NCBI GenBank assembly: GCA_963702705.1
Contig: CAVPDR010000001.1
Coordinates: 100,821 to 164,820 of the forward strand
From: an uncultured Solirubrobacterales bacterium
Lineage (GTDB): Bacteria; Actinomycetota; Thermoleophilia; Solirubrobacterales; 70-9
Direction: 5' to 3'
DNA length: 64,000 nt
The translations under genes were made by a program, and so were the position numbers. Each line of letters starts with the position of its first letter. The stretch's first letter is position 1. The notes below the pieces were generated by a model, which was not told the DNA's origin, searched no databases, and worked only from the letters and a program-made list of their open reading frames with translations. This document shows positions 5,803-62,772 of the stretch, piece after piece.

Positions 5803-5835
5803 TAGCTCATGGGACCTCCGATCCCTGCCCCTGGC

Positions 5836-6486: not shown

Positions 6487-6525
6487 TCTGGTCGCTTGCG
6501 GAACGCGGTCGGACACGAACGCCAG

Positions 6526-19440: not shown

Positions 19441-19528
19441 CTTTTTGGATCGAGACGTGGCTGCTGGCGCCTCAAGGTGGACGCCCAAAAAGTACAAGAC
19501 GTTCCACCCCTACCCGGATCGTCCCGTC
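19409..19528 (+). repeat. family-2 nested-hairpin repeat, copy A
   Basis: 23-bp complementary outer arms (19409-19431 / 19506-19528). They enclose TTCCACTTAACTTTTTGG ... CCAAAAAGTACAAGACGTTCCAC. It fills the whole convergent gap between the GT2 and flippase genes. Confidence 0.85.
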
Positions 19529-21068: not shown

Positions 21069-22720
21069 GGCTCGACCCTACGTTGCTGGGCGGCCGCGAG
21101 CGAAGCCCCGACTGCTAGCAGCACCCAGGTGATCGGATCCTCGAAGAACCCTGCGTAGGCCATCGTGTGCACCAACAAAGCTACGAAGACGGCGAGGACG
21201 GCTGCTCTTCCAACCAGCAGGCTTATTGGCAAAGGTCCCGACTTGGCGTGCTCTCCGGTGGGTGGCGTGGGGTGAGGGGGGTCGAGGACGGACCGTGGCC
21301 CGCCCGCAGGCCCCCCTCGCCCCGCGACAGGACCCGCCGGCCAGAAGCGCCACAAGCCAGCCGCCATTGTCCATAGGGCTGTCGCGACCAGAGCTAGGTA
21401 AGCGGCTACGCCGATGATGCCCTGCTCGGCTGCGATTGTTATTGGCTCGGTGTGCGAGACGGAGACTGGGGCTTTGTGCGTCTGTACGTGCTCGCGGTAG
21501 GCCTTGGGAAAGCTTCCCGATCCGTAGCCATAGACGGGGCGCTGGGCGAATAGGTGGATGCCACCGGAGACCAGATTTGCTCGGCCGCTGGTGTCGATGT
21601 TGATGCGGTCGAGACTGGCTCTTCCGCCGGTGAACAGGACCACGAGGATGCCGAGGACGGCGAAGGCTCCAACGGCAACGAGGGTCCAGCGCAAGCTCCA
21701 CTTCAGAGCCGCCAGCACGGCCATGCCGGCGAGCAGCGCCGCGAAGCTGGACTGCGAGAAGGTCGGGAAGAGCCCGAGCCAGAGCACCAAGACGAGTGCC
21801 GTCAGCAGGCCCAACGTTTTGCGTTCACGGGCCCATAGCAGGGCCGACATCGCGACCACAGCCACCAGCGCCAAATACCGCCCGTAGATATTCGGATCCC
21901 AGAACACCGAATTCACCCGGAAGTACGTGTGGAATTCGTTCGACCGGATCACCTGGTCGTTCCAGAACAAGCTGCGGCTGAAGTACTCCACTGAACCGAC
22001 AACGACAAAGCAAACGGCCTCCACAGCAACCACCCAGAGGACCAAGGTCAAAAGCTTCTTGTCCCAGTTGACGTCCCGCAGCAACCCATAGACCAGACTG
22101 AACGGTACGAAGAAGAAGCAAACGTTCTGCAGTCCCTTGGAGAAGTCCGGCGAATACAGCACCTGCAGCGCATAGAGAAGGACGAACGCGGCCAGGACGT
22201 ATGGCAGCAGCGAGGGGGGGTCGATTCGGGGGCGGCGTCCTGTTTTTCGCACAGACCGCTCAGCGAGAGCCGCCCGGCGCCAGGCGAAAAACCCAGCCCC
22301 CGGATCGACCCCCCCTCGCTGCTGCCACTCACCAAACGCCAAGGAGAGAACCCCCCCAGCGATCACCAGGTAAAGAGGCACCAGTAGGTTCGCCGTGTCG
22401 CCGCCAGCATGCAGGGGGACCCGAAACGGCAGCACGAAGACGATCGCCAGCGGCAGCAGAATCGGCCAGCGCCTGAAGACGTAAGCGAAGGCCACGGCCG
22501 CCGCGACCCCGACCACACCCAGCGCCACCAGCCGCGAGGTGTGATCCCGCAGATCGACGATCTGGTGCGAGTGCCACTGGTCGCCGAGGATCAAGGCCGG
22601 GAAGAGGGCGAGCGCGATGAGCATCGCCAGCGCGCGCGGGCGGGCCGCCGGAAGCAGGATCACGCCGGCCGATGCCACGGCAGCGACAACGACACCTGCT
22701 GCCGCCAGGACGTCGCTCAA
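21044..22720 (-). CDS. O-antigen ligase / polymerase-like (Wzy_C-type) membrane protein
   Basis: Polytopic protein with FWDPNIYGRYLALVAVVA and SQSSFAALLAG ... SHTEPITIAAEQG segments typical of the family. It carries two palindromic inserts in frame. Confidence 0.7.
   Translation of the reverse strand: MSDVLAAAGVVVAAVASAGVILLPAARPRALAMLIALALFPALILGDQWHSHQIVDLRDHTSRLVALGVVGVAAAVAFAYVFRRWPILLPLAIVFVLPFRVPLHAGGDTANLLVPLYLVIAGGVLSLAFGEWQQRGGVDPGAGFFAWRRAALAERSVRKTGRRPRIDPPSLLPYVLAAFVLLYALQVLYSPDFSKGLQNVCFFFVPFSLVYGLLRDVNWDKKLLTLVLWVVAVEAVCFVVVGSVEYFSRSLFWNDQVIRSNEFHTYFRVNSVFWDPNIYGRYLALVAVVAMSALLWARERKTLGLLTALVLVLWLGLFPTFSQSSFAALLAGMAVLAALKWSLRWTLVAVGAFAVLGILVVLFTGGRASLDRINIDTSGRANLVSGGIHLFAQRPVYGYGSGSFPKAYREHVQTHKAPVSVSHTEPITIAAEQGIIGVAAYLALVATALWTMAAGLWRFWPAGPVAGRGGPAGGPRSVLDPPHPTPPTGEHAKSGPLPISLLVGRAAVLAVFVALLVHTMAYAGFFEDPITWVLLAVGASLAAAQQRRVEPCPDTSAA
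21269..21323. repeat. short G-run palindrome inside the Wzy-like CDS
   Basis: GGGGTGAGGGGGG (21269-21281) pairs with CCCCCCTCGCCCC (21311-21323) with one G-T position. The GAGGGGGGTCGA word is shared with the repeat at 22202. Confidence 0.6.
22202..22327 (-). repeat. family-2-like nested-hairpin repeat, copy D, in frame inside the Wzy-like CDS
   Basis: 31-32-bp arms GGCAGCAGCGAGGGGGGGTCGATTCGGGGGC / GCCCCCGGATCGACCCCCCCTCGCTGCTGCC with 1 mismatch. Inner stem GTTTTTCGC/GCGAAAAAC. On the minus strand it reads CGAAAAACAGGACGCC, resembling CGAAAAAGTACAAGACGC of copies A and B. Length 126 bp = 42 codons. Confidence 0.75.
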
Positions 22721-31478: not shown

Positions 31479-34417
31479 TGCACACCGGCGGGACTGCAAC
31501 TCAAAGGCTCAACACCTTCCAGGGTTGCTCGAGGATTTTTTCGAAGCAGGGCCGCAGTGGCGCCAGCAAATCCTCGACTTCGGCGGCGGCATCGGCCCGG
31601 GGTTGAGCGGTCAAGCTCTTCGAGGTCATGGAGGGCAGCCAGTCGACCGCCTTGGCTGCATTCCCGCCGGTACCACTCGGGCCGAACCAAGAGCAGATCG
31701 CCGAAGCGGCAGCCGGGCTCCTCGCGATCGACAGGAAGGGCGAGATCCTCGAACAACGTCCCCACGTCGAGCACTCCCCAAGCAACCGATTTCATCGTGA
31801 GGCTAAATCGCGTCGTATTCGCTGCGAGGGTTCCGAACACACCGCAGAGCATCCTCGGCAGCAGAGCGGCAGCTATGCCCTCACTTGCAAGCACGATCGA
31901 GTCAGTTTCCTCGGAGGCCGCGATTTGAGCGGTGGATCCGAGTGTCGAAATTCGCCCAGAGCGCGTCTCAGCTCCGAGGGCGAGGACGGATCTTTCAAGT
32001 GTCCAGCTCCCGGTCCTCTCGAGAACGCCCTCGAAGACAACAACGGACCGCTCGGCATGAACGGTCGCCGGCGCCTGTCCGCCGAGCCGGGCAAAGCTCT
32101 CCTTGATCATCAGGCTTCCTACCGATGCGTCGAATTTGGCAGTGTTGAGGACCAGGGAGCAGCCGAAGCCTCGAAGCGAGCCTACGTGTGACGATTTCAC
32201 GTCCAGAGTGGCCGACGACGCATTGAGCGTGCACGCGTCCAGCGATGACGCTGTCAAGTCGATCTGCGCGGTCGCCCGCTCGGAGTGCAGCTGCTCGATC
32301 GTGGAGGACGCGACGCCCGCGCAGATATCTGACTCGTTCAGTGTCATCTCAACGATGTGAGACTCCCGGATGTCAACCGCCTTCCAGGTCGCATCCCGAA
32401 GCTCAAGTGAGGCAATGGTGCAGTCTGACCAAGCGGAGTCGACCATCCGTGTGCCGGTAAACCCGAGACGGCCGAAACTCGCCTCAAAGATTTCGCCATT
32501 TTTGAGGAGAGGTAGGTCATGGTCCGGTCTGGTGTAGAGAAATGCAACCAGCGCGTTCCTTCTCACTACCCTGTCCAATGGATCGGCCTGATTGAACTTG
32601 TCCCATATCCCCTCACCGACCTCCGGTTGCGTTGGAGCAAACCCTCCGAGGAAGTAGAGGACCTCCCGATCGAGCCACTGGCTCATCAGAGACGGCGTTT
32701 CGCCCAGTGCTTCCCTTAGAACGCGAGCTACAAAAAACTCGCGAAACGATTTATGGACGAATCGGCACCTGCCGTCCTGATCCAGCGTTACGAACGAGCA
32801 GGTCGCGAAGTCGGTGGCGATCTCCTCTCCGGTGAGACCGCTGGCCTCGACCTCTTCTCTTGCGGTGGCGCCGGCCAGGAGCCGCTCGAGCGTCAGGTGG
32901 AAATCGACTTCGAGCGTATTGGCTTCGTACATCTGCACAGCCAGGGCCTCGGCAAGCGTTCGCCGGGCGTGGAGCGTTAGGCCTCCTCGCCGAACAACCC
33001 CCTTGGCCAGGTCAAGGTCGAGCTTTGCCCGCGTGTAAATCTCGTACAGGCCGGATGCTCCGTAACGCGTGTCGGTGTCCTTCGGGTCGAGGCCACCGAT
33101 AATCACCGAGTCGATGATCATCGTCAGGAGCAATGGCCGGGTTGCGAGGTCGGCCAGATCGTAGATCCGATCGATCAGATCCATGAGGTCCTCGGGCGTC
33201 GCGCCTGCCCGTGCCAACTCATCGCGCCGCAGCTCGACCAGCTGCTGCACACGCCTTCGATCCAGTGGCAGCAGCCGCACGAGCTGTGCATCGCGCTTTC
33301 CCAGCGCCCTCCGATCGGCACGGCCGGGACGGCTCTCGCGATGCCGCTCCACCAGTCCGCGTCGCAGGCGGTCGGCTTCGTCGAAGATCTCGCTCTTTGA
33401 CGGCAGCGGCTCGGTCAGATCGGCTTCCTGGTCATTCAGCGTTCGTATCAAGCCATCCAGCTCACCACGCTCTACAAAGTAACTGGGACGGGAAGTGACT
33501 ACGGATGGCGAGCGCGAGCGCAGCACGGCGAGGAGCTCGTGGAAGAGATCGACGCGGCGCGATGGATCGCTACGCTCAACCATCTCGTCAAAGCCATCGA
33601 ACAGAATGTAAAAATGTCCACTTTGAATGCGTTGCCAGAGCAGGTCGGCCGGCGGGTCCCGATAGTACGCATCGCGGAAGCTGCCTCGTAGTAGCGCTGT
33701 AAGGTCCTGGCTTTGTCGAAATTCGCGCAGTGCCACATACAGAGGCACACGCGTGTCTCGACCGGCGAGATAGGCCTTGGCTCGCTCGTACTGAATGGAG
33801 TTGACGAGGGTCGTCTTACCAGCCCCGAAATCGCCCAGGATGAAGAGCGCGTTGGGGGCTTGGTCGGTCAGCTCGCGAGCGCCCATCCATTCCTTGAGGA
33901 TTGCGTCGAGGGTCAAGCCGGATCTTTTTCTGGGAGAAAAGGTTGACCACGAGAGTGGCTCGACCGATAGCGGCAGGTACTGACGGTAGATCGGGGAATT
34001 TTCGTAGTCGGCTACGAATCTCTCGAGTTGATGGCGTACGTCGAGCAAGTGGGCGGCGAGCTGCTCCCATGTCAGTAGTTGAATATGGCCGTGCTTGGCT
34101 GCGGCCTGACGTGCGTGTTGCGTAAAGCCGCTTGAACTCACCATTACCCCCGAGAGGATGTCCGGGCCAGCCTGTTCGCTGATTATGCGCGCTATGAAGT
34201 CGTTGACGAGCTTGATCCCGATCGCTTTTTTTTCGTCCTTGCACTCGACGATGAGTTTGAGTGTGGGGCCGCCCTCAACATGGCGATGGGCAACCAGGTC
34301 GGATTGGTTGCCGTCGAGTTGAAGGTTAGGCGTGACTTGGTACCCGAGCGCCCGGTAGACGTCGGCGACGCGCCGCTCGAATTCTTTGCCCGGCCTCAGA
34401 GATCCGCCCGCCGTCAC
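31442..34417 (-). CDS. STAND NTPase: Mrr-like PD-(D/E)xK nuclease + NACHT + pentapeptide-like repeats
   Basis: Nuclease core GNQSDLVAH...LKLIVECKDEK...SSGFTQHARQAA. Walker A GDFGAGKTT, Walker B YILFDGFDEM, then VVTSRPS and FVHKSFREFFVA. The C-terminal ~330 aa are repetitive. A GTG start at 34417 is proposed because upstream ORF-track residues overlap ddl. The gene is visibly lower in GC. Confidence 0.8.
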   Translation of the reverse strand: MTAGGSLRPGKEFERRVADVYRALGYQVTPNLQLDGNQSDLVAHRHVEGGPTLKLIVECKDEKKAIGIKLVNDFIARIISEQAGPDILSGVMVSSSGFTQHARQAAAKHGHIQLLTWEQLAAHLLDVRHQLERFVADYENSPIYRQYLPLSVEPLSWSTFSPRKRSGLTLDAILKEWMGARELTDQAPNALFILGDFGAGKTTLVNSIQYERAKAYLAGRDTRVPLYVALREFRQSQDLTALLRGSFRDAYYRDPPADLLWQRIQSGHFYILFDGFDEMVERSDPSRRVDLFHELLAVLRSRSPSVVTSRPSYFVERGELDGLIRTLNDQEADLTEPLPSKSEIFDEADRLRRGLVERHRESRPGRADRRALGKRDAQLVRLLPLDRRRVQQLVELRRDELARAGATPEDLMDLIDRIYDLADLATRPLLLTMIIDSVIIGGLDPKDTDTRYGASGLYEIYTRAKLDLDLAKGVVRRGGLTLHARRTLAEALAVQMYEANTLEVDFHLTLERLLAGATAREEVEASGLTGEEIATDFATCSFVTLDQDGRCRFVHKSFREFFVARVLREALGETPSLMSQWLDREVLYFLGGFAPTQPEVGEGIWDKFNQADPLDRVVRRNALVAFLYTRPDHDLPLLKNGEIFEASFGRLGFTGTRMVDSAWSDCTIASLELRDATWKAVDIRESHIVEMTLNESDICAGVASSTIEQLHSERATAQIDLTASSLDACTLNASSATLDVKSSHVGSLRGFGCSLVLNTAKFDASVGSLMIKESFARLGGQAPATVHAERSVVVFEGVLERTGSWTLERSVLALGAETRSGRISTLGSTAQIAASEETDSIVLASEGIAAALLPRMLCGVFGTLAANTTRFSLTMKSVAWGVLDVGTLFEDLALPVDREEPGCRFGDLLLVRPEWYRRECSQGGRLAALHDLEELDRSTPGRCRRRSRGFAGATAALLRKNPRATLEGVEPLSCSPAGVHHRKRLMSLIST

Positions 34418-37331: not shown

Positions 37332-37380
37332 GCCGACGGGCCTGAAACGTCCATTATTTGGACGTTTCAGGCCCGTCGGC
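37332..37380. repeat. perfect 22-bp-arm palindrome between pbpA and pknB
   Basis: GCCGACGGGCCTGAAACGTCCA-TTATT-TGGACGTTTCAGGCCCGTCGGC. Confidence 0.95.
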
Positions 37381-44870: not shown

Positions 44871-45707
44871 ATGCGGATCGCCTACCTGGGACCGGCGGGA
44901 ACGTTCACCGAGGACGCCTTGCGTGAGGCGATGGACCCTGGCGAGGAGTTCGAGGCGCTGCGCATGCCGACGATCCACGAGGCGATCCTCGCGGTCGAGC
45001 GCGGCGAGGCAGAGCGGGCGCTGGTCCCGTTCGAGAACTCGATCGAGGGGTCGGTGCGCAGCACGCTCGACACGCTCGCTTTCGACGCCGAGGGGGTGAC
45101 GATCGTCGGCGAGCACGACTTCGCCGTGCGGGCGATGCTGCTCGCACGGACGGCCCTTCCCCTCGACCGGATAACCACGGCGCTCTCGCACCCGCAGCCA
45201 CTGGCGCAGTGCGCCCGCTTCCTGCGCGAGAGCCTGCCTGGCGCCGAGCTGCGCTCCGTCAGCAGCACCGCGGAGGCGGTCAGGCTCGTCAGCGAATCGG
45301 ACGAGCCATGGGCGGCGATCGGGGCTCACGCCGCCGCCGAGCTCTACGGATGCACGATCCTGCGCGAGGACATCGAGGACGAGGCCAACAACGTCACCCG
45401 CTTCGTCTGGATCGCCCCGGCGGGCACCGCGCCGATGTCCGGCGTGGACTGGAAGACCTCACTCGTCTTTTCGGAGCTCGGCGAAGACCATCCCGGGGCG
45501 CTGGTCGAGGCGCTGCGCGAGTTCTCCTCGCGCGCCGTCAACCTGAGCCGGATCGAGTCACGGCCGCGGCGGCTCGGATTGGGCCGCTACATGTTCTTCT
45601 GCGACCTCGAGGGAGCCCTGACCGACGCCCCGGTCGCCGAGGCCATAGCGGCGCTCCGCGGCAAGGCGGAATCGGTTCGAGTATTGGGCTCCTACCCAAC
45701 TGCGTAG
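44871..45707 (+). CDS. pheA: prephenate dehydratase
   Basis: MRIAYLGPAGTFTEDAL ... VPFENSIEGSV ... C-terminal ACT region TSLVFSELGEDHPGALVEAL ... NLSRIESRP. Confidence 0.9.
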   Translation: MRIAYLGPAGTFTEDALREAMDPGEEFEALRMPTIHEAILAVERGEAERALVPFENSIEGSVRSTLDTLAFDAEGVTIVGEHDFAVRAMLLARTALPLDRITTALSHPQPLAQCARFLRESLPGAELRSVSSTAEAVRLVSESDEPWAAIGAHAAAELYGCTILREDIEDEANNVTRFVWIAPAGTAPMSGVDWKTSLVFSELGEDHPGALVEALREFSSRAVNLSRIESRPRRLGLGRYMFFCDLEGALTDAPVAEAIAALRGKAESVRVLGSYPTA

Positions 45708-45721
45708 AATTCCCGGGCAAT

Positions 45722-46228
45722 ATGGCACGGGTGCTCGTACTCAACGCAACGTATGAGCCAATCAACGTATGCACGTTGAGAAGGGCCGCTGTGCTCTTGC
45801 TGAAGGAAAAGGCGGAGCTGCTCGAGCGCCGCGAAGGCGCGATCCACTCCGAGCACATGACGATGGAGCGGCCCGACGTGATCCGCCTCGTCAGCTTCGT
45901 GCGGATCCCCCGCGAAGCGCACCGGAGGAAGATCACCCGGCGCGCGGTGCTGGCCCGGGACTCCTGGACCTGCCAGTACTGCGGCTCGCGCAAATCCGGC
46001 CTCACCGTCGACCACGTCATCCCCCGCAGCCGCGGCGGCAAGTCGGTCTGGGAGAACATCGTCGCCGCCTGCGCTTCCTGCAACAGGCGCAAGGGCAACC
46101 GCCTCCCCCGCGAGATCCACATGCACCCGCAGAACACACCGAAGGCGCCGGGGCCGACGGTCTTCATCCAGGTGGCCAGTCCCAAGATTCCGCAGGCGTG
46201 GGAGCAGTACTTGCCTGCGGCTGCGTAG
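45722..46228 (+). CDS. HNH endonuclease family protein
   Basis: WTCQYCGSRKSGLTVDHVIPRSRGGKSVWENIVAACASCNRRKGNR. Confidence 0.85.
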   Translation: MARVLVLNATYEPINVCTLRRAAVLLLKEKAELLERREGAIHSEHMTMERPDVIRLVSFVRIPREAHRRKITRRAVLARDSWTCQYCGSRKSGLTVDHVIPRSRGGKSVWENIVAACASCNRRKGNRLPREIHMHPQNTPKAPGPTVFIQVASPKIPQAWEQYLPAAA

Positions 46229-46232
46229 GGGG

Positions 46233-46366
46233 AGGGCAGCGGGGAGGTCTTGGCGGATCCCATGCACCGCCGCCGGGCGGCGGTGCGAACCAAGTGCCCC
46301 TTCGGGGCTCATCATCACTCTGCGGAGCCGCTTCGCGAGGATCCGCCAAGGCCTCCCCACTGCCCT
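46233..46366 (+). repeat. family-1 nested-hairpin repeat, copy R1
   Basis: 28-nt arms AGGGCAGCGGGGAGGTCTTGGCGGATCC / GGATCCGCCAAGGCCTCCCCACTGCCCT with 2 non-Watson-Crick positions. Core has GCACCGCCG-loop-CGGCGGTGC, GCCCCTTCGGGGC and CTCTGCGGAGCCGCTTCGCGAGG. It starts 5 nt after the HNH stop. Confidence 0.9.
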
Positions 46367-46569
46367 AGCTACCGCCCCGACAGGATCAAGCTCGTCCTCT
46401 CTCAGCCATCCGGGCAGTTCGGCTGGCGACCGGGTCCGCGGGCGGCTCAACACAAAGCTCCCGGTCTCGGCGAGTGAAAGTGGCTATCGCTCCGCCGAAA
46501 GCTCAACAGCGTGGTGGTCGTGAGGGTTGTTCTGCTTCCGTGACAGGCGAGCAGCCGGCGGTTCGGAGA

Positions 46570-46697
46570 GTCGGCGGGCGTGGCTGTCCCGGTTCCTCGC
46601 GAAGCGGCTCCGCAGAGGGGTTCTAAGCCCCGAAGGGGCTCATCGTTAGCACCGCCCATGGCGGTGCTTGGGAACCGGGACAGCCACCCCCACCGAC
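46570..46697 (-). repeat. family-1 nested-hairpin repeat, copy R2
   Basis: Same core read on the minus strand (AGCACCGCC-ATG-GGCGGTGCT, GCCCCTTCGGGGC, CTCTGCGGAGCCGCTTCGCGAGG). 27-nt arms are 25/27 complementary. It ends 3 nt after the gyrA stop. Confidence 0.9.
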
Positions 46698-46700
46698 CCC

Positions 46701-52913
<6,213 letters not shown>

Positions 52914-52936
52914 TTAGTCCCTTCCCGTTCTCATAG

Positions 52937-52977
52937 AAAACCCCGGCCGTCTGGACACTTGCTGCACACGGCCGGGG
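52937..52977 (-). terminator. intrinsic-terminator-like hairpin plus U-tract in the gyrB leader
   Basis: The minus strand reads CCCCGGCCGT-gtgcagcaagtgtccag-ACGGCCGGGG, then TTTTCTAT. It ends about 24 nt before the gyrB start codon. Confidence 0.5.
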
Positions 52978-53070
52978 CAGAAATGCAAGTTGACATAAGG
53001 ATACCAGTTCGGGCCCTTTGCCGACCTGGTTGGAGGAAATAAAAGTCCTGCAAATCAGCCATAAATGAAA

Positions 53071-53376
53071 TTACTTTCGGGCATCTTCCACACGGAAGCG
53101 CAAACTCTGCGGGGCGCGCTCTCCCAGGCGCCCGCGCAGGCGCTCCAGGAGCTGTCCTTGCATCAAATCCAACTCCTGCGCCCAGACGGAATCCGAGCAG
53201 GCCACGGTCGCCTCCCCCCCTCGCTCGGCAACCGGGCTGGTCACCGCGGCGATCTGCTCGCCGACCACCTCCGCCCAGGCTCCCTGCAGCGCCGCGAGCG
53301 GCGTCTTCGGCGCCGCTCGGTCGAGCGCGGCGCGCAGGGCAGCCGAGGCCGGGCGGGGGGCTCGGCGCCGAGTCAT
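53071..53376 (-). CDS. DUF721 (DciA-like) protein
   Basis: 101 aa, LQGAWAEVVGEQIAAVTSPVAERGGEATVACSDSVWAQELDLMQGQLLERL. The ATG overlaps the recF TGA (ATGA). It occupies the usual recF-gyrB position. Confidence 0.75.
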   Translation of the reverse strand: MTRRRAPRPASAALRAALDRAAPKTPLAALQGAWAEVVGEQIAAVTSPVAERGGEATVACSDSVWAQELDLMQGQLLERLRGRLGERAPQSLRFRVEDARK

Positions 53377-54465
53377 GCCGCAGCCGCCTCGCTTGTTTCG
53401 AACGGCATCCTCACCGTGCTCGCCATCGCCGGGGCCGGCAGCGAGTCCGCGGCCGCGGCCGTGATCAGCGTCTGACCGCCGGCGGCGAGGCGATCCACCA
53501 GCCGCTCGCGCCTGGGCGGGTCGAGCTCGCTCATCACGTCGTCGAGTAGCAGCAGCGGCGCCACCTGGCGCGCCGCGAGCAGGACGTCGCGCTCGGCGAA
53601 GAGCAGCGCCAGGAGCGCCGAGCGCTGCTGGCCCTGCGAGCCGTAGCGGCGCAACGAGCGGCCTGCGGTGCCGATCTTGAGCTCGTCGAGATGGGGGCCC
53701 CAGGAGGTCCTGCCCAGACGTAGGTCGGCCTCGCGTCGCTCGGCCAGGCCGGCGCGGATCTCGGTCGCTGAACCTTCGGCCCGCGGTGCAGTACTCGAGC
53801 TCGGCCCCACCTTCGAGCCCGAGCTGGGCGGCCGCCTCGGTAAAGGGACCATCCAACTCGGCGACGGCGTCGGCGCGGGCGGCGACGAGGGCGGCCGCGG
53901 CGTCGGCCAAGGTCGCGTCCCAGACGTCGAGCTGCCCCGGCGCGCCGCGGCCAGACGCCAGCTTGGCAACCAAGGCGTTGCGCTGCGCCAGGGCCTGGCC
54001 GAAGCGCTGGCGCAGGTCGCCCCGGACCGGCCAGCGGGCGGCGACGAAGCGGTCGAGGTGGGCGCGCCGTTCTGCCGGCGGGCCCTTGATCAGCGCCAGC
54101 CGGTCGGGAGAGAAGACGGCGACGGGGGGTCGGCTGCGGGCCAGCGTCGCGGGGTCGGCGGGGCTGGCGTCGAGCAGGTGGCGGCGGCCGTCCGTGCGGC
54201 TAACCGAGGCGAGCAGGTGGCGCTCCACCCCGTCCTCATCGCGCACGGTCGCTTCTGCGCGCGCGAAGGAGTTGCCGAACGGGATCAGGTCACGCCGATC
54301 CGCAGTGCGGAAGGAGCGGCCCGTCAGGGCGAAGTAGAGCGCCTCGAGGAAGTTCGTCTTGCCGGCGCCGTTGGGACCGACCAGGCTTGTGATCCCCGGT
54401 CCCAGCTCGATCCGCAGCCGGGCCAGACTCCGCACCGGCCTCGCTTCGGCGGCGGTGACCAGCAC
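53373..54465 (-). pseudogene. recF: DNA replication and repair protein RecF, one apparent frameshift
   Basis: The N-terminal part (GPNGAGKTNFLEALYFALTGRSFRT ...) runs in one frame to about ELEY. The C-terminal part (GPHLDELKIGTAGRSLRRYGSQGQQRSALLALLFAE ... LLLLDDVMSELD) is in another frame. The switch lies between about 53745 and 53800. Confidence 0.8.
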
Positions 54466-54474
54466 CGACAGGCC

Positions 54475-55581
54475 TCACACGTTGAGGCGGATCGGCATCA
54501 CCAGATAGCGGAAGTCTTCGTTGTCGACCGGCTGCAGCAAGCCCGGGCGCAGCGGCGAGATCAACCGCAGCACAACCTCGTCGCCCTCGACGCTTTCGAT
54601 CCCCTCGCGCAGGAAATCGGGGTTGAAGCCGATCTCCAGCGGCTCACCCTCGAAGGCGGCCGGCATCGTCTCCTCGGCGTCGCCGACGTCGGGGGTCGAG
54701 GCGGCGACCGTGAGCTCGCCCGGCGCAAAGGAAAGTCGCAACGGCGCGTTGCGCTGCGCCAGCTGGCTGACCCGGCGAACGACGTCGAGGAACTCGCTCC
54801 GCGGCAGCCGTACGTCGTGCTCGTAGGACTCCGGCAGGAGTTGTCGAAAGTTGGGGAACTGTCCCTCGATCAGCCTCGTGTTGAGGACGATCGCCCCTGC
54901 CTTGAAAACGGCCTGGTTGCGCAGCAGGGAGACCGAGACCTCCTCGACCCCGTCGGCCGAGACGATCCGGCCCAGCTCGCGTAGCGCCTTGGCCGGGATG
55001 TTCGCCTCCAGCTCGCCGCCGATCGCACGCTCGAGCTCGGTCCGCTTGACCGCAAGCCTGTAGGAGTCGGTCGCGACCATCGTCATCTCGGAAGCGCTGG
55101 CGCTGACCAGGACGCCGGTGAGGACCGGCCGCATGTCGTCGCGGGACGCTGCGCGGGCGACGAGATCAACCGTCGACGCCAGCGCGGCCGCGGGGATCGT
55201 CAGCGGCTCACCGTCGTCCTCGGGGAAGGCGGGGAAGTCCTCGCTGGGCAGGGTGCGAAGGTGGAAGCTCGAGCCGCCGCTGCGGATCTCGACGTCGCGC
55301 TCGGCCTCGCGAAGCTCGATCTCGACCGACGGGTCGCCGAGCGAGCGCGAGAGCTCGGCGAGCAGACGGCCGGGCAGGAGAACTGCGCCGGGGCTGTCGA
55401 CGTCGGCGGTGAGCGTCGTCTTCAAGCCCAGCTCGAGATCTGTCGCACAGAGACTGACGCCGGCCTCGTCGGCGGTGAGGAGGATTCCGGAAAGAGACTG
55501 GGTGGCGGCCCGCGTCGATACGGCCCGGGAGACGACCGAGAGCTTGGCGACCAGCTCATCGCGTTTGGTTGTCAGCTTCAA
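54475..55581 (-). CDS. dnaN: DNA polymerase III beta sliding clamp
   Basis: KLTTKRDELVAKLSVVSRAVSTRAATQSLSGILL ... LVMPIRLNV. TTG at 55581 is taken as the start, because ORF-track residues upstream look non-coding. Confidence 0.9.
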   Translation of the reverse strand: MKLTTKRDELVAKLSVVSRAVSTRAATQSLSGILLTADEAGVSLCATDLELGLKTTLTADVDSPGAVLLPGRLLAELSRSLGDPSVEIELREAERDVEIRSGGSSFHLRTLPSEDFPAFPEDDGEPLTIPAAALASTVDLVARAASRDDMRPVLTGVLVSASASEMTMVATDSYRLAVKRTELERAIGGELEANIPAKALRELGRIVSADGVEEVSVSLLRNQAVFKAGAIVLNTRLIEGQFPNFRQLLPESYEHDVRLPRSEFLDVVRRVSQLAQRNAPLRLSFAPGELTVAASTPDVGDAEETMPAAFEGEPLEIGFNPDFLREGIESVEGDEVVLRLISPLRPGLLQPVDNEDFRYLVMPIRLNV

Positions 55582-55749
55582 GTGGTGATTGCTTTCTTGA
55601 GTTGGATTAGGGCTTGTGGAAAAGCTCGAAAGCGACGCAGACCTGGCTTCAGCTGGCGCCTGGGCGGCTGTGGAGCGGTCTGTGGGAAGGCATTGATTCT
55701 TACAGCGCCGTCGGCCGTCAGGCCGAGCCTGTGGGTCCGGTGTGGATAG
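55582..55749. promoter_or_regulatory. candidate oriC core: DnaA-box cluster in the dnaA-dnaN spacer
   Basis: Five same-orientation TGTGG-type 9-mers. Their reverse complements are TTTTCCACA (55615-55623), CGCTCCACA (55669-55677), CTTCCCACA (55681-55689), GGACCCACA (55730-55738) and CTATCCACA (55741-55749). An AT-richer stretch lies at 55586-55612. Confidence 0.6.
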
Positions 55750-57046
55750 CGCCGCGCAACTCCGCAACGCGCTGGGCAAGGGCGGCGTCTTCGCCGAAGC
55801 GCGCTTCGACCCGCCTGATCGAGTTGAGCACGGTGGAGTGATCGCGCCCACCGTAAAGGCGACCGATTTGCGGCAGCGATAGATCGGTCAGCTCGCGGGT
55901 GAGGTAGATCGCGACCTGACGGGCGCGCAACGGGAGGGCCGAGCGGGTCGAGCCGACCAGCTCGGCCCGGGAGATGCCGAAGTCGGCGCAGACGCGGCTC
56001 TGTATTTCCTCGACCGGCGTCGATTCGTCTCTTCTCCTCCCTTTTGGGATTACCGCGTCGATCAGCTCGGCGCTGAGTGGCTTGGCGGTCAGCGAGGCGT
56101 GGGCGAGGACGCGGGTGAGCCCGCCGTGTAGCTGCCGCACGTTGACGTCGATCCGCTCGGCGAGAGCGTCGAGCACGTCGCCCTCGGTATCGACGCCGGC
56201 CTCGCGCACGAGCCGGCGCAGGACGGTCAGCCGAGTCGCCAGATTGGGCGGCTCGACGGCGACGGTCAGGCCCCACTCGAAGCGGTCTCGCAGGCGCGAC
56301 TCGAGGGTGGAGAGCTCGCTGGGAATGCGGTCGGCGGAGAGGACGAGCTGGCTGCCGCCTTCGTAGAGGGCGTTGAAGGTGTGGAAAAACTCATCCTCGG
56401 TGTGGCGCTTGCCCTCGAGGAACTGGACGTCGTCGACCAGCAGCACGTCGAGGTCACGGTAGCGGCGCTTGAAGGCCTCGGCGCCGGTGCTGCGTAGGGC
56501 GGCGACAAACTCGTTGGTGAAGCACTCGGCGGTTGTGTAGCGGACGCCGAGGCCAGCAGCGTTCGCCGCCAGGTAGTTGGCGATCGCGACGAGCAGGTGG
56601 GTCTTGCCCAGCCCCGGCGGCCCGTGGAGGAAGAGCGGGTTGTACGCCTCCGAAGGCGCCTCGGCGACGGCGAGCGCCGCCGCGTGGGCCGCGCGGTTGC
56701 CTTCGCCGATCACAAAGCGGTCGAAGGTGTAGTTGGCGTTGAGATCGATACCGGGGTCGCAGTCGGAACCGGACTCGGGGCCGTCGCCGACATCGCCGAT
56801 TCGCACCTCGGTCAGACTGGACCCAGCTCCGATGAGCGCCTCGCGGATCAGGCCCGTGTAGCGCCGCTCTGTCCAGGCTCGAATGCCTGCGGGCGCGGCG
56901 AGATAGAGAACGCCGGCCTGGGCGCCGACGACCTTCAGCGGTTCCAGCCAGAGCTGGAACGTCGATGGCGGCAGAGCCGCCCGCAGTCTCTCTTGGGCAT
57001 CCCGCCAGAGGGAGTCGAGGTCATGTTTGGGAGGGTCATCGGGCAC
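55718..57046 (-). CDS. dnaA: chromosomal replication initiator protein DnaA
   Basis: LFLHGPPGLGKTHLL, VLLVDDVQFL, and C-terminal DNA-binding region RQVAIYLTRELTDLSLPQIGRLYGGRDHSTVLNSIRRV. Confidence 0.95.
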   Translation of the reverse strand: MPDDPPKHDLDSLWRDAQERLRAALPPSTFQLWLEPLKVVGAQAGVLYLAAPAGIRAWTERRYTGLIREALIGAGSSLTEVRIGDVGDGPESGSDCDPGIDLNANYTFDRFVIGEGNRAAHAAALAVAEAPSEAYNPLFLHGPPGLGKTHLLVAIANYLAANAAGLGVRYTTAECFTNEFVAALRSTGAEAFKRRYRDLDVLLVDDVQFLEGKRHTEDEFFHTFNALYEGGSQLVLSADRIPSELSTLESRLRDRFEWGLTVAVEPPNLATRLTVLRRLVREAGVDTEGDVLDALAERIDVNVRQLHGGLTRVLAHASLTAKPLSAELIDAVIPKGRRRDESTPVEEIQSRVCADFGISRAELVGSTRSALPLRARQVAIYLTRELTDLSLPQIGRLYGGRDHSTVLNSIRRVEARFGEDAALAQRVAELRGAIHTGPTGSA

Positions 57047-57179
57047 CGGCGGCCGACCATAGCGGCGGCGGGAGGTGGCGACATCCGCTCCCTCGCAAAT
57101 GGCGGAGAAAGCTTCGTTGCTCCGTGGGAGAAGCGTCGTGCCTTGAGCTCGAGGATCAATCCGTATACTGCGACGCCGA

Positions 57180-57314
57180 ATGAAGAGGACTTATCAGCCG
57201 AAGAAGCGGAAGCGGGCAAAGACGCACGGATTCCGGGCGCGAATGAGCACGCGGGGGGGTCGGGCGATCCTCAGCCGCCGCCGCCGCAAGGGCCGCAAGC
57301 GCCTCACTCCCTAG
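57180..57314 (+). CDS. rpmH: 50S ribosomal protein L34
   Basis: Hand translation gives [44 protein letters not shown]. It is below the ORF-track length cutoff. Confidence 0.9.
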
Positions 57315-57686
57315 ATGGCGACGCAACGACGTCGCCGCCTCTCCCGCAGCGGCGAGTTCGACCGCGTCTATCGCGACGGATCCTCACATGCCACCCGCTA
57401 CCTCGTTCTTTACCGCTTTCCCCGCAGCGGCGAAGAGGAGGCCGACGAGGTGAGGCTCGGCGTCTCGGTCAGCCGCAAGGTGGGGGGCGCCGTCGATCGC
57501 AATCGGGTCAAGCGCGTCATGCGCGAGGCATTTTGGACCCTCTCCGACCAGCTCCCCCCTGCCCATGACTTTGTCCTGGTGGCGCGGCCTGAGATCGGCG
57601 ACCTGATCGAGCGCGAGGGCAGCTCCGGCGTGCGCACGAGCATCGAGGAGGCTCTGGCCGGTGCGGGAAGGGGACGTTCCACGTGA
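57315..57686 (+). CDS. rnpA: ribonuclease P protein component
   Basis: RLSRSGEFDRVYRDGSSHATRYLVLY ... VSRKVGGAVDRNRVKRVMREA. It starts immediately after the rpmH stop. Confidence 0.9.
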   Translation: MATQRRRRLSRSGEFDRVYRDGSSHATRYLVLYRFPRSGEEEADEVRLGVSVSRKVGGAVDRNRVKRVMREAFWTLSDQLPPAHDFVLVARPEIGDLIEREGSSGVRTSIEEALAGAGRGRST

Positions 57687-57690
57687 AACG
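57675..57690. promoter_or_regulatory. parS-like ParB binding site
   Basis: cGTTCCACGTGAAACg. The 14-nt core is identical to the TGTTCCACGTGAAACA parS palindrome. It lies at the rnpA/yidD junction. Confidence 0.65.
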
Positions 57691-57961
57691 GGCCCTGCTG
57701 GCGCTGATCGGTGCCTACAAGCGCTGGATCTCGCCGTCGATACCGCGCCGCTGTCGCTACGAGCCGAGCTGTTCGACCTACGCCGCCGAATCGGTGAGCC
57801 GCTTTGGCGGCGGACGGGGCACCCTGCTGGCCGCATGGCGGCTGCTGCGCTGCAATCCGCTTAGCCATGGGGGCTTTGACCCCGTGCCTGACCGCTTCAC
57901 GCTCAAAGTCGGCCCGATCGACCCCGCTGTCCACCATGGAGAGGCCCACTCGCACTCGTGA
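57683..57961 (+). CDS. yidD: membrane protein insertion efficiency factor YidD
   Basis: LIGAYKRWISPSIPRRCRYEPSCSTYAAESV ... RLLRCNPLSHGGFDPVP. Confidence 0.9.
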   Translation: MKRALLALIGAYKRWISPSIPRRCRYEPSCSTYAAESVSRFGGGRGTLLAAWRLLRCNPLSHGGFDPVPDRFTLKVGPIDPAVHHGEAHSHS

Positions 57962-58707
57962 TCGTCGACGCGAACATCCTGCAGCCGCTGATCGACATCG
58001 TCAACTCGGTCCTCAAGTTCTTCCACGACAACGCCGGGCTGAGTTGGGGAATGTCGATCATCGCCCTGACGATCCTCACCCGGGCGCTCCTGATCCCGCT
58101 CACCTACCGCCAGCTGAAGGGGATGCGGGCGCTGCAGGCACTGCAGCCGCAGATCAAAGAGATCCAGGCGAAGTACAAAAACGACAAACAGCGCATGCAG
58201 CAGGAGATGATGCGCTTCTATCAAGAGAACAAAGTCAACCCCTTTGCCTCCTGCATCCCGCTGCTGGCCCAGCTCCCGGTCTTCTTCACCCTCTTTTCCG
58301 TTCTCCGGCACGACCTTCCCGCGGACATAGGCTGCACGGCCGGCCACTGCGGGTCCGAAGCGTCCTTCCTCTTCATCAACGACCTGACGGCGAAGGCGCA
58401 CGGGGCCGAACTGATCGCGCTGCTCGTCCTCTACATCGGCACCCAGCTGGTCTCGGGCATGGTGATGTCGGTCACCGCCGACAAAAGCCAGCGGACGATG
58501 ATGATGTTGCTGCCCTTCATCTTCGTCCCCTTCGTGATCAACTTCCCGGCCGGCCTGATCCTCTACTGGATCACGACCAACTTCTGGACGATGGGGCAGC
58601 AGTACACGATCCAGAAGCTGATTCCGGCTCCGCAGGTGGCTACGGCGGCCGCGGTTCAGGCAGCAAAGCCGCCGCCGCCTCCGCCTAAAAAGAAGAAGCG
58701 ACGGTAG
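57958..58707 (+). CDS. yidC: membrane protein insertase YidC (short form)
   Basis: IIALTILTRALLIPLTYRQLKGMRALQALQPQIKEIQAKYKNDKQRMQQEMMRFYQENKVNPFASCIPLLAQLPVFF. Confidence 0.9.
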   Translation: MIVDANILQPLIDIVNSVLKFFHDNAGLSWGMSIIALTILTRALLIPLTYRQLKGMRALQALQPQIKEIQAKYKNDKQRMQQEMMRFYQENKVNPFASCIPLLAQLPVFFTLFSVLRHDLPADIGCTAGHCGSEASFLFINDLTAKAHGAELIALLVLYIGTQLVSGMVMSVTADKSQRTMMMLLPFIFVPFVINFPAGLILYWITTNFWTMGQQYTIQKLIPAPQVATAAAVQAAKPPPPPPKKKKRR

Positions 58708-58710
58708 GTA

Positions 58711-58848
58711 GGGGATTGGCGGGGGTGGCCTCGCCGAGTGCCCAAGCACCGCCAAAAGGCGGTGCTAACCAAGAGCCCCTTCGGGGCCTTGAACCACTCT
58801 GCGGAGCCGCTTCGCGAGGCATCGGCGAGGCCACCCCCGCCAATCCCC
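58711..58848 (+). repeat. family-1 nested-hairpin repeat, copy R3
   Basis: Perfect 27-nt arms GGGGATTGGCGGGGGTGGCCTCGCCGA / TCGGCGAGGCCACCCCCGCCAATCCCC. Core has AGCACCGCC-AAAA-GGCGGTGCT, GCCCCTTCGGGGC and CTCTGCGGAGCCGCTTCGCGAGG. It starts 4 nt after the yidC stop. Confidence 0.9.
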
Positions 58849-59040
58849 GTGAAGCACCAGCTTGTTCGCCCACCTCGAGCGAAAGCGCGATTCGTGGTGA
58901 GAGCTTCGCGACGAAGGCCCCTCATTAGCTCTCCGAATCAGCGGCTGTCAATGCGGGAGCTTTCTCGCGGGGGGTGGCATCGAATGGGGGGACCGCCCTG
59001 AGGACGCTTTAGCGACCGGAAGGGTGGTGGGCCCCATTCG

Positions 59041-59571
59041 GTGACAGGACCCGCCGCGCCTACACTCCGGCGCATAGACTGCACCACCGTGACTGGAGCT
59101 GACGACTGGCCACAGGAGCCCGCGGAGCGCGTTCGCGAGATCGTCGAGGGCGTTCTCGATGAGCTCGACCTCGATGGCGAGGTTGAGATTCGAGAGGAGG
59201 ACGACCGAATCACCGCTTCCGTCAGCGGCGACGACGATTACGGCCTGTTGATCGGCAAGCGAGGGCAGACGATCGACGCCCTGCAGCTGCTCGCCTACCA
59301 GGCGGCCTTCCGCGGGATGCGCGAGCGCAAGCGGGTTGTCGTCGACGCGGCCGGCTATCGCGAGCGGCGCCGGGAGACCCTGACCGCCCGTGCCGATCGC
59401 GCCGCCGAACAGGCGCTCGGCGGCAGTGAGAGCGTCGAGCTCGACCCGATGAGCGCCCAGGAGCGCCGTGTCGTCCACGAGCATCTCAAGGACCGGGCCG
59501 GCGTCGAGACGTACAGCGAAGGTGACGAGCCGCACCGCTGCGTGGTCGTCGCTCCTTTGGTTGCGGAGTAG
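59041..59571 (+). CDS. jag: Jag/R3H-KH RNA-binding protein
   Basis: KH-like LLIGKRGQTIDALQLL and R3H-like MSAQERRVVHEHLKD. It occupies the conserved position after yidC. The start is uncertain. Confidence 0.8.
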   Translation: MTGPAAPTLRRIDCTTVTGADDWPQEPAERVREIVEGVLDELDLDGEVEIREEDDRITASVSGDDDYGLLIGKRGQTIDALQLLAYQAAFRGMRERKRVVVDAAGYRERRRETLTARADRAAEQALGGSESVELDPMSAQERRVVHEHLKDRAGVETYSEGDEPHRCVVVAPLVAE

Positions 59572-59685
59572 AGGGAGCGCCCCGGTGGGGGTTCCGCTTA
59601 ACTTTTTCGAGTCGCGCCTAGGGGGCTGACCATGGCTGGCGGCGAAAAAGTACAAGACGCTCCACCCCCACCGGGGCGCTCCCTC
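59571..59685 (+). repeat. family-2 nested-hairpin repeat, copy B
   Basis: Perfect 22-nt arms GAGGGAGCGCCCCGGTGGGGGT / ACCCCCACCGGGGCGCTCCCTC. They enclose TTCCGCTTAACTTTTTCG ... CGAAAAAGTACAAGACGCTCCAC. It begins at the last base of the jag stop and contains the ORF-track rsmG ATG. Confidence 0.85.
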
Positions 59686-60342
59686 AGTGAAGCGCAGAGG
59701 GCGACGATCACGCTTGTTCTAGAGCTTTTGGAGGTGGAGCGGGCCTCGGTCAGCTCCGTTACCGATCCAGGCCGCGCTTGGCGGGTTCACGTGGCGGACA
59801 GCCTGACCGGTCTCGAATTCGAGCAGCTGGCAGCGGCGCAGAGGATCGCCGATGTTGGCTCTGGAGCAGGGTTTCCGGGCCTCGTTCTGGCTGTCGCCCT
59901 GCCCAATGCCCAGGTTGACCTAATCGAGTCGGTGGGCCGGAAGTGTGAATTCATCCAGCGCGTGATCGATGAGGCTGAGATCAAGAATGCTCGCGTCCTC
60001 AACGCCCGCTCAGAGGAACTGGCCGAAGGCGAAGGCCGGGAGGCCTACGCGGCCGTGACCGCCCGCGCCGTGGGCCGCCTCTCAACCCTCGCCGAGCTGG
60101 CCTCGCCGCTCCTCACAGAAGGCGGAGTCCTGGTCGCCTGGAAGGGCAAGCGCGACCCCGAAGAGGAGGCCCAGCTCGTCAACGCCGCCCCGGAGCTGGC
60201 GATGCAGCCTGAGCAGGTTCTCCATGTCGGCCCCTTCGCCGGCAGCGAACATCGTCACTTGCATTTGATCCGCAAGAGTGGCCGCACGCCCACCAAGCTG
60301 CCGCGCCGCCCGGGCATGGCCAAGAAGCGCCCCTACGGCTGA
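59632..60342 (+). CDS. rsmG: 16S rRNA (guanine527-N7)-methyltransferase
   Basis: IADVGSGAGFPGLVLAV ... DLIESVGRKCEFI ... VTARAVGRL ... GGVLVAWKG. The first ~18 codons lie inside repeat copy B. Confidence 0.85.
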   Translation: MAGGEKVQDAPPPPGRSLSEAQRATITLVLELLEVERASVSSVTDPGRAWRVHVADSLTGLEFEQLAAAQRIADVGSGAGFPGLVLAVALPNAQVDLIESVGRKCEFIQRVIDEAEIKNARVLNARSEELAEGEGREAYAAVTARAVGRLSTLAELASPLLTEGGVLVAWKGKRDPEEEAQLVNAAPELAMQPEQVLHVGPFAGSEHRHLHLIRKSGRTPTKLPRRPGMAKKRPYG

Positions 60343-60406
60343 CCCCGAAAGCTGGCGCGGCGTAGTGACTGAGGGCCTCCGGCCCTACGCCAATAGTCTG
60401 CAACCA

Positions 60407-61165
60407 ATGGGCGTCGTCTACGCGATCTCGAACCAGAAGGGCGGCGTCGGCAAGACGACCACCGCGGTCAACGTCGCCGCCTGTGTCGCCGCCTCCGGCA
60501 CCCAGACCCTGCTGGTCGACCTCGACCCCCAGTGCAACGCGACGGTCGCCCTCGGCAGCGAGCGCGACATGCACCCCTCCTCCTACGACTGCCTGACCGG
60601 CGACGTTTCGGTCGCCGAGGCTGCCCGTCCCGCCGGTCCGGACAATCTATGGCTGGTCCCCGCCAACCGCGACCTCGCCGGCGCCGCGGTCGAGCTGCCG
60701 CGGATCGAGGGCTCGGAGACGCGCCTGCGCGAGCGCCTCGGCCCGGTCCGCGAGCGCTTCGCCTACACGCTGCTCGACTGCCCACCCTCGCTCGGCCCGG
60801 TCAGCGTCAATGCCCTCACGGCCGCGGACCGGGTGATCGTGCCGGTTCAGGCGGAGTACCTGGCGCTCGAGGGCCTGGTCCAGTTCCTCGACACGCTGGC
60901 GACGATCCGACGCGAGCTCAACCCGGCGCTCGAGGTGTCGGGGCTGCTGGTCACGATGCACGATGAGCGCACCCGCTTGGCCCAGGATGTCGAGCGCGAA
61001 CTGCGCCAACACTTTCCCGAGATGGTCTTCAAAACGGTGATCCCCCGTAGCGTCCGCGTCGCCGAGGCGCCGAGCTATGGTCTGCCGGTGACCGAGCACT
61101 CGCCCAGCTCGCGCGGCGCCGAGGCTTACCGCGCGCTCGCCGAGGAGCTGACCGAGCGTGGCTAA
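60407..61165 (+). CDS. parA: chromosome partitioning ATPase ParA/Soj
   Basis: MGVVYAISNQKGGVGKTTTAVNVAA ... LLVDLDPQCNAT ... YTLLDCPPSLG. Confidence 0.9.
   Translation: MGVVYAISNQKGGVGKTTTAVNVAACVAASGTQTLLVDLDPQCNATVALGSERDMHPSSYDCLTGDVSVAEAARPAGPDNLWLVPANRDLAGAAVELPRIEGSETRLRERLGPVRERFAYTLLDCPPSLGPVSVNALTAADRVIVPVQAEYLALEGLVQFLDTLATIRRELNPALEVSGLLVTMHDERTRLAQDVERELRQHFPEMVFKTVIPRSVRVAEAPSYGLPVTEHSPSSRGAEAYRALAEELTERG

Positions 61166-62698: not shown

Positions 62699-62772
<74 letters not shown>

Follow-up and report, generated by a model that had tools for sequence, protein, structure and literature searches.

The DNA analysed here, 64,000 nucleotides of contig CAVPDR010000001.1 from an uncultured Solirubrobacterales bacterium (hereafter the window, meaning the whole stretch), carries three copies, R1, R2 and R3, of a hairpin-forming repeat of about 130 bases that we call Family 1. 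Family 1 is a repeat family of soil Solirubrobacterales genomes, and the literature that we searched contains no published description of it. Each window copy follows a gene in that gene's sense orientation, R1 an HNH-domain gene, R2 gyrA and R3 yidC, with 3-4 nt between stop codon and element (3-5 nt in an earlier reading made by a model without database searches, the sequence-only reading). The interval 46701-61165 is the replication-origin region of the chromosome, with gyrA, gyrB, recF/DciA, dnaN and dnaA on the minus strand, rnpA, yidC, jag, rsmG and parA on the plus strand and the dnaA-rnpA gap near 57.05-57.3 kb. GC skew across the window is weak; the gene layout indicates that R2 and R3 are oriented with replication and R1 against it.

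The positions that the sequence-only reading gave for the three copies were reproduced (Table 1), and so were its counts of paired bases in the closing arms: 26/28 Watson-Crick pairs plus one G.U and one A.C in R1, 25/27 plus one G.U and one other mismatch in R2, and 27/27 in R3, where 4 further inner pairs follow a 1-nt bulge. The loops of the first core hairpin are CCGGG, ATG and AAAA in the three window copies, also as it had reported. The copies align with 81% mean column identity and share the 23-mer CTCTGCGGAGCCGCTTCGCGAGG, which occurs exactly three times in the window, once in each copy, at a chance expectation of 0.02 even allowing up to 3 mismatches; GCCCCTTCGGGGC likewise occurs three times, once per copy. 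Predicted folding energies of R1-R3 range from -96 to -113 kcal/mol, with z scores of -9.6 to -13.4 versus dinucleotide shuffles. A covariance model (model R1) was built from 51 copies with the type A core defined below, a seed set chosen by search pattern, and a search with it revealed no fourth Family 1 copy in the window. Two weak matches, at 9073-9167 and 33222-33294, were rejected as copies, their fold stability being about that of shuffles (z -1.0 and -2.1).

Table 1. Coordinates of the Family 1 copies, their parts and the stop codons that precede them (window positions)
Feature	Position	Strand	Remarks
Copy R1, entire element, type A core	46233-46366	+	134 nt; model R1 125.4 bits, E 4.6e-26; fold -98.6 kcal/mol, z -9.6
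R1 5' arm, 28 nt, G-rich, AGGGCAGCGGGGAGGTCTTGGCGGATCC	46233-46260	+	partner 46339-46366
R1 hairpin 1, GCACCGCCG-CCGGG-CGGCGGTGC	46264-46286	+	covariation at 7/8 helix pairs over 51 copies
R1 hairpin 2, GCCCC-TTC-GGGGC	46296-46308	+	middle pair covaries G-C/C-G (37/12) in alignment
R1 conserved 3' module (23-mer)	46318-46340	+	terminal GG is first two bases of 3' arm
R1 3' arm, 28 nt, C-rich	46339-46366	+	pairs with 5' arm
Copy R2, entire element	46570-46697	-	128 nt; model R1 130.8 bits; fold -96.3 kcal/mol, z -10.5
R2 arms	5' arm 46697-46671; 3' arm 46596-46570	-	25/27 Watson-Crick
R2 core parts	hairpin 1 46667-46649; hairpin 2 46639-46627; 23-mer 46617-46595	-	
Copy R3, entire element	58711-58848	+	138 nt; covariance model 131.7 bits; fold -112.6 kcal/mol, z -13.4
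R3 arms, perfect 27 bp	58711-58737 and 58822-58848	+	bulge G58738; inner 4 bp 58739-58742 with 58818-58821
R3 core parts	hairpin 2 58775-58787; 23-mer 58797-58819	+	
TAG stop of HNH-domain gene (45209-46228)	46226-46228	+	4 nt before R1; Pfam HNH, E 1.2e-16
gyrA stop (C-terminal part 46701-48404)	46701-46703	-	3 nt before R2; Pfam DNA_gyraseA_C, DNA_topoisoIV
TAG stop of yidC (57958-58707)	58705-58707	+	3 nt before R3; Pfam 60KD_IMP, E 3.2e-56

Distribution and anatomy of Family 1

Solirubrobacterales are abundant soil actinobacteria known almost solely from metagenome-assembled genomes (MAGs), and we know of no description so far of their non-coding DNA. The claim of a repeat family, made from three copies, is borne out by many further copies beyond the window, found by an exact 20-mer scan and by covariance-model search. 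The 20-mer TGCGGAGCCGCTTCGCGAGG matched at least 116 stretches of a species-representative genome set, nearly all of them Solirubrobacterales MAGs; the few matches within genes of other taxa are due to chance. The host-genome loci were read as 8-kb stretches, L001-L116 being those from the 20-mer scan. Model R1 detected about 22 additional copies that lack the 20-mer, as well as many in soil metagenome contigs, and altogether more than 140 Family 1 copies were found in Solirubrobacterales MAGs and soil metagenomes. By rough estimate, the density would be about one copy per 20-60 kb, corresponding to tens to somewhat more than 100 copies per genome of 2.5-2.9 Mb. Carriage by phages was considered and dismissed, the 20-mer giving zero matches against viral contigs.

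The sequence-only reading did not recognise the element as a known RNA family, and Family 1 indeed matches no Rfam family at gathering thresholds or at E ≤ 10. The sole match of an Rfam 15 scan of the window at gathering threshold is a tRNA (62699-62772), and at E ≤ 10 the interval 46150-46780 returned only chance-level microRNA and small nucleolar RNA models (10-20 bits against thresholds of 39-98). These empty results rule out a known RNA family, self-cleaving ribozymes and riboswitches included.

In a Family 1 unit, a G-rich arm of 28 nt and its C-rich complement enclose a modular core of 65-85 nt, which is made up of small GC hairpins, two or three in number, whose loops are of the TTC type. 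Closing arms are present in 114 of the 128 analysable copies, and their pairing was measured by anchored gapped arm alignment, which replaced RNAfold because folding with flanks over-extends the stem in GC-rich DNA. Arm length in these 114 copies has its mode at 28/28 and a hard lower bound, and the tail above 28 is at the level expected from chance pairing of G-rich and C-rich flanks. With pairs numbered from the core, imperfections concentrate at pairs 4-9 and include a C.U that recurs at pair 8; at pairs 10-28, 92-99% are Watson-Crick. The arm consensus comprises an invariant inner CC/GG and strongly favoured G at pairs 5, 17-20 and 26-28. Mean pairwise arm identity is 54%, and conservation does not peak at the outermost arm bases. 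The pair-8 C.U mismatch was seen in copies of unrelated loci (e.g. L002, L016, L029, L040, L047, L051, L082 and L087), always together with inner arms ..C(T/C)GG(A/T)(A/G/T)CC / GG....(A/G)TC, which suggests that inner arm and core have spread as one unit.

Within the core, hairpin 1 occurs as type A (GCACCGCC..GGCGGTGC, with covarying versions, among them ATCCCGCC/GGCGGGAT and CCACCGCC/GGCGGTGG) or as type B (GT[TG]CGCTTCGC[TG]CAC). Hairpin 2 is GCCGC-TTC-GCGGC plus covarying variants, among them the stems GTCGC/GCGAC, GCGGC/GCCGC and ACCGC/GCGGT in the wider copy listing. The 23-mer that the sequence-only reading termed invariant deserves that name in the window and its subfamily, but family-wide only GCCGCTTCGCGAGG is nearly constant. 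A third hairpin (UGCGGAG/CUUCGCG), drawn by RNAalifold within the 23-mer, was discarded as a conserved helix; variants, among them CTCAGCCGTGGCC.., CTCGCCGGTGCGCC.. and TTTGCAGAGCC.., break it, and its invariance in the seed set is due solely to the search pattern, which selected it.

Pairing and placement

Covariation of the stem is statistically strong, in line with the sequence-only reading. Over 51 copies, 95% of the cells are paired, versus 74% in column shuffles and 43-47% with slid partners; 433 cells are changed on both sides (121 expected), and covariation was detected at 25 of the 27 pairs of the closing stem and at 7 of the 8 pairs of hairpin 1. The step from covariation to a selected RNA structure did not hold up, as the pairing changes show no RNA signature. 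Among 3,476 arm positions, G.U (27) is less frequent than A.C (45). Of the compensated changes in orthologous pairs, 173 are transitions and 190 transversions, a ratio equal to that of plain substitutions in the flanks (278:263), and the rate of change of arm base pairs is no lower than that of flanking bases (29% vs 19%). The Watson-Crick fraction is 0.946-0.954 in all four contexts (same-strand gene end, opposite-strand gene end, both, neither). The sole strand-specific helix, hairpin 3, contains two G.U pairs; the seed set shows no variation in it, and variant copies disrupt it. These data point to a pairing constraint that lies on DNA rather than on the sense RNA, and they illustrate that strong covariation by itself does not prove a functional RNA.

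We considered the alternative that Family 1 is a host-selected, cis-acting RNA element of 3' untranslated regions, serving as a U-tract-independent terminator, as a block to 3' exonucleases or as a binding or processing platform (e.g. for RNase III or a lineage-specific protein), in which case the arm covariation would reflect selection on RNA pairing. We hold this to be possible but rather improbable. The conserved core sequence speaks for it; the excess of A.C over G.U, the compensated transition:transversion ratio of about 0.9, pairing that is no worse in antisense and non-3' contexts, and the disruption of the predicted hairpin 3 in variant copies speak against it. A further point against it is the absence of a U-tract past the stem: over the 114 copies, the 12 nt that follow the 3' arm contain on average 2.75 T versus a background of 2.35, with a longest T run of at most 3. 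This absence rules out a canonical intrinsic terminator, and no terminator-like site was found in the window interval 45900-47000.

The position of the copies bears on the same alternative. Placement after a stop codon in sense orientation, which the sequence-only reading ascribed to every copy, applies to the three window copies, whereas family-wide it applies to 68 of 114 copies (19 of 31 distinct loci). These 68 begin at -4 to +32 nt from a same-strand stop, with the mode at -1 to 0. An opposite-strand gene end lies beside the 3' arm in 31 of the 114 copies, and 36 adjoin neither kind of gene end. Orthologs were collapsed to 31 flank-defined loci, with S denoting a same-strand gene end at the 5' arm and O an opposite-strand gene end at the 3' arm; 12 loci are S, 7 SO, 4 O and 8 none. 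The ratio of S-only to O-only is 47:10 by copy and 12:4 by distinct locus; with orthologs collapsed the orientation bias lacks significance (p = 0.077), which weakens it as evidence. TAG makes up 63% of the stops beside copies (43/68); it was rejected as a defining feature of the element, since TAG already accounts for about 45% of stop codons in these genomes (309/688 crude gene calls from the window and L001-L116), a high value for a genome of 68% G+C.

At the yidC site, Family 1 is in sense orientation in 23 and antisense in 1 of 74 assessable yidC loci. At convergent gene pairs there are often two elements, each in sense with one of the genes, as at R1/R2, L009, L043 and L045. Copies that depart from post-stop sense placement are found between divergent genes, in antisense to both neighbours or within a gene's 5' end. 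In L041, two copies with different cores (5442-5567, plus; 5603-5732, minus) stand inverted, 36 nt apart, between yidC and jag, the second being antisense to both genes, and L179, L013, L027 and L033 have the same arrangement. In L019, L058, L065, L089, L114 and L028, a copy separates a conserved ATGA-overlap start codon from the signal-peptide core of the gene that follows. Read from that ATG, the frame runs open across the element and into the signal peptide in 6/6 carriers, the one with an inverted core included; in the element-free orthologs L038, L020 and L094 the ATGA-overlap start leads straight into the signal peptide.

A role in the transcript draws on the stop-proximal position of the window copies and of the 68, on the sense excess by copy and by locus, on the yidC site, on the convergent pairs and on long retention at orthologous sites; sense bias, one element per gene at convergent pairs and orthologous retention together suggest that transcripts feel the element. 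On the other side stand the p value once orthologs are collapsed, the copies between divergent genes, antisense to both neighbours or within a reading frame, and the shortness of the intergenic spacers, often just 0-30 nt in these genomes, so that proximity to a stop codon is partly unavoidable for nearly any intergenic insertion.

An actinobacterial precedent, the TRIT motif of Mycobacterium described in the RNIE paper, has more than 100 palindromic copies of conserved sequence with narrow placement at stop codons (PMC3152330), which favours an RNA element. Its role as a terminator is doubtful by Term-seq, however, TRIT predictions coinciding with just 2-4% of mapped M. tuberculosis termination sites (bioRxiv 10.1101/2022.06.01.494293). 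Family 1 resembles TRIT in being actinobacterial, palindromic, positioned at stop codons and without a canonical U-tract; TRIT differs in being a short simple hairpin with a conserved stem, restricted to Mycobacterium, without a multi-hairpin core or variable arms. The precedent illustrates how uncertain the assignment of transcript-end roles is. Intrinsic terminators share with Family 1 a GC-rich hairpin right after the stop codon, usually in sense, but they have stems of 5-12 bp instead of 28 bp and a short loop instead of a branched apex of 65-85 nt, and Family 1 combines the lack of a U-tract with a sequence common to different loci.

Gain, loss, inversion and exchange of the unit

Comparisons between related loci showed that, as DNA, the unit in its entirety undergoes gain, loss and inversion, as well as partial exchange from copy to copy. 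A clean 119-nt indel comprising arms and core distinguishes L089 from L028, the flanks being about 98% identical, and this is the whole-unit presence/absence between close relatives that marks mobile DNA. Since the entire unit with its arms is the indel between near-identical genomes, the arms belong to the DNA unit that was gained or lost. Together with the fixed 28-bp length and the full-length consensus, the indel weakens the argument of the sequence-only reading that arms sharing only a loose word are not a terminal inverted repeat. Insertion of a core into the loop of a pre-existing terminator hairpin, with the arms supplied by the target, was rejected on the fixed 28-bp arms with their full-length consensus and on the empty allele, which has no hairpin.

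At a further shared locus L028 carries its core the other way round from L089, L114, L065 and L019, and at the yidC site L148 likewise has an inverted core. L106 shares its arms with L111 and L081, yet its core is of type A where theirs is of type B; in L079 and L116 the outer 13 nt of the arm agree, but the inner 15 nt and the core type do not. Between L111 and L116 the flanks are about 90% identical and arm identity is 0.57, the level of unrelated arms. L122 (compared with L120) and L188 (compared with L172) resemble internal deletion derivatives. The post-stop sites after gyrA, yidC and the gene preceding HNH vary by lineage, being occupied by Family 1 in sense or antisense, by families with other cores, by a simple hairpin or by nothing. 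These same sites host at least two further families whose arms are variable yet complementary and which have conserved cores of their own, AACTTTTTCG..CGAAAAAGTACAAG and ..TGAGTATCCGCC.. among them. In two comparisons of filled and empty sites, GGCC or CCGG stands at both element ends; as these words are palindromic, a target duplication is indistinguishable from stem extension or from deletion end points.

A conventional MITE (miniature inverted-repeat transposable element), that is, a deletion derivative of an insertion sequence (IS) moved in trans by a DDE transposase that reads a few conserved arm positions and leaves the rest free to vary, would agree with the fixed 28-bp arms, their conserved inner CC/GG and G-run at 17-20, with the presence/absence polymorphism and with subfamilies (inner arm plus hairpin 1) common to unrelated loci. 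We nevertheless judge it very unlikely: a parent IS with these arms is absent from the sampled loci, no consistent target-site duplication was seen in the filled/empty comparisons, the arms differ among all copies within a genome with no identical paralogs seen, and other arm positions are better conserved than the outermost bases. Free drift would moreover ruin complementarity, yet 95% of pairs are retained. No inverted arm pair spaced 0.3-4 kb apart was found in the 116 loci and the window. The only IS seen in the loci, unrelated to Family 1, is an IS481-like element in hairpin 1 of a type B copy (L077, 2973-4180; ends TGTAATTCC/GGAATTACA); it contains an open reading frame of 351 aa that by its sequence resembles an rve-type integrase, and TAG (possibly CTAG) is repeated at both junctions.

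Movement as single-stranded DNA, in the manner of a REPIN, by a single-copy HUH transposase (RAYT or IS200/IS605-type) that reads the folded core hairpins would suit a hairpin-forming unit with small internal GC hairpins, a pairing constraint on the DNA level and long vertical persistence, and compensatory changes preserve the hairpin in REPINs as well (PMC3116915). GTAG also precedes R1, R2 and R3, but it is accounted for by TAG stops at their frequency of 45%. No RAYT gene was seen in the loci read, where no search aimed at RAYT was made, and the layout is the reverse of that of REPINs, in which the ends (REP 16-mers) are highly conserved and the spacer varies (PMC3116915). We therefore consider this route, too, highly improbable.

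The reading that we favour, with about even confidence, is that Family 1 is a REP/MITE-like, lineage-specific interspersed palindromic DNA repeat whose pairing is enforced on DNA and whose transcript hairpin probably has secondary effects at gene ends. That the arms diverge fast between loci yet stay complementary would follow from pairing enforced on DNA, and the likeliest process would be intra-strand template switching during replication, by which one arm of a quasi-palindrome serves as template for the other. Template switching at replication reportedly turns quasi-palindromes into perfect palindromes, according to Ripley and the Lovett laboratory, and long palindromes are lost by slippage deletion. 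Recombination between copies probably replaces core and inner portions of both arms as a single tract, which would explain the mosaic arms and the core-type switches. Persisting copies lie mainly in very short post-stop spacers, mostly in sense, where insertion would be tolerated. Where a transcript ends in so stable a hairpin (about -100 kcal/mol), its upstream mRNA may gain protection or a defined end, an effect that would be secondary and dependent on orientation.

Several points weigh against the favoured reading of a DNA-level palindromic repeat. Template switching is what we infer as the source of arm complementarity, and the conserved core needs selection or homogenisation as an explanation. 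Neither a transposase nor another mobilising gene was found, and a full-length IS with matching arms is absent, in 0.87 Mb of loci; a clear and consistent target-site duplication was not seen in the filled/empty comparisons, and both empty sites could equally have arisen by deletion between the short GC palindromes (GGCC, CCGG) that end the arms. No near-identical pair of copies was seen across different loci, so there is no sign of recent transposition. Retention at the same locus across many species-level genomes (114 copies in 31 loci) and the yidC-site orientation of 23 to 1 also fit host selection. With no mobilising enzyme, parent IS or target duplication found in the loci and with deletions possible, the repeat is better called dispersed, unstable palindromic DNA than an active transposon.

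Known repeats and neighbouring elements

The kind of element is already known, as bacterial interspersed palindromic repeats such as REP/REPIN, ERIC, Correia and the Rickettsia RPE; new are the family, its host lineage and the reversed layout common to several sister families, which have not been described. Like the REP, BIME and REPIN elements of Pseudomonas and Enterobacteria, Family 1 has tens to hundreds of extragenic palindromic copies per genome, a predicted hairpin in single-stranded DNA or mRNA that is kept by compensatory changes, largely vertical inheritance with long persistence, and frequent placement at gene 3' ends. It differs from REPINs in having a conserved centre with variable outer arms, the reverse of their layout, and in that its copies within a genome are all distinct, in contrast to the master-sequence population of REPINs. 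The Correia (Neisseria), ERIC/IRU (enterobacteria) and RPE (Rickettsia) elements are similar in length (100-150 bp), in long inverted arms that fold as hairpin RNA, in insertion beside genes and in presence/absence among relatives, and one Family 1 locus apparently lies in frame inside a gene as RPE does. In Correia elements the target duplication is TA, and a promoter and an RNase III site are known. The arms of Correia, ERIC/IRU and RPE are conserved between copies, whereas those of Family 1 vary, and the sequences are unrelated.

Family 1 offers a clean natural case for separating the maintenance of a palindrome on the DNA level from selection on the RNA level. The covariance model enables annotators to mask or label elements that sit on gene ends and are able to supply or displace stop codons. 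If it is true that transcripts end in these hairpins, the elements would shape the mRNA 3' ends of a noticeable share of the lineage's genes. A broader idea, which we think unlikely, is that Family 1 and at least two sister families form a structure-defined class of repeats whose arms are continually re-copied from each other by fold-back or template-switch synthesis, leaving their sequence free to drift while pairing is kept, whose conserved branched core is read by the host or an enzyme and which is used as orientation-dependent gene-end punctuation in place of canonical terminators.

The window holds other hairpin repeats. A second family of the same architecture is represented at 19409-19528 and 59571-59685 by perfect variable arms of 22-23 bp around a 71-74-nt core (..CTTAACTTTTT..AAAAAGTACAAGACG..); GTAG stands directly upstream of both copies, and the copy at 59571-59685 begins at the jag stop codon. 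Relatives were seen in L069 and, directly after yidC, in L117, L126, L135, L172, L182 and L191. A long-stem element at 22202-22327 combines 37-nt arms of 92% complementarity with a 52-nt core whose inner stem is TTTTTCGC..GCGAAAAA (predicted fold -99.8 kcal/mol, z -11.4). A perfect 25-bp hairpin with a 12-nt loop at 14662-14723, present also in L059 (1743-1809), has an arm, GAGTCGGGGGGGTGCCCGGCGGAGC, that fits the Family 1 arm consensus, and may be a core-less relative or deletion derivative of Family 1. Another perfect hairpin, of 22 bp with a 5-nt loop, lies at 37332-37380 (-51.4 kcal/mol, z -10.3), and its stem is relatively AT-rich, unlike those of the other families.

Two observations concern genes of the window. 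gyrA is seemingly interrupted, its C-terminal part (46701-48404) overlapping a minus-strand open reading frame with a predicted LAGLIDADG_3 domain (48374-49894), as would be the case for a gyrA intein. At 2134-6496, three to four diverged tandem paralogous segments comprise direct-repeat families D1-D3 (62-74% identical, spacing 1.4-2.1 kb), which suggests a small tandem gene family.

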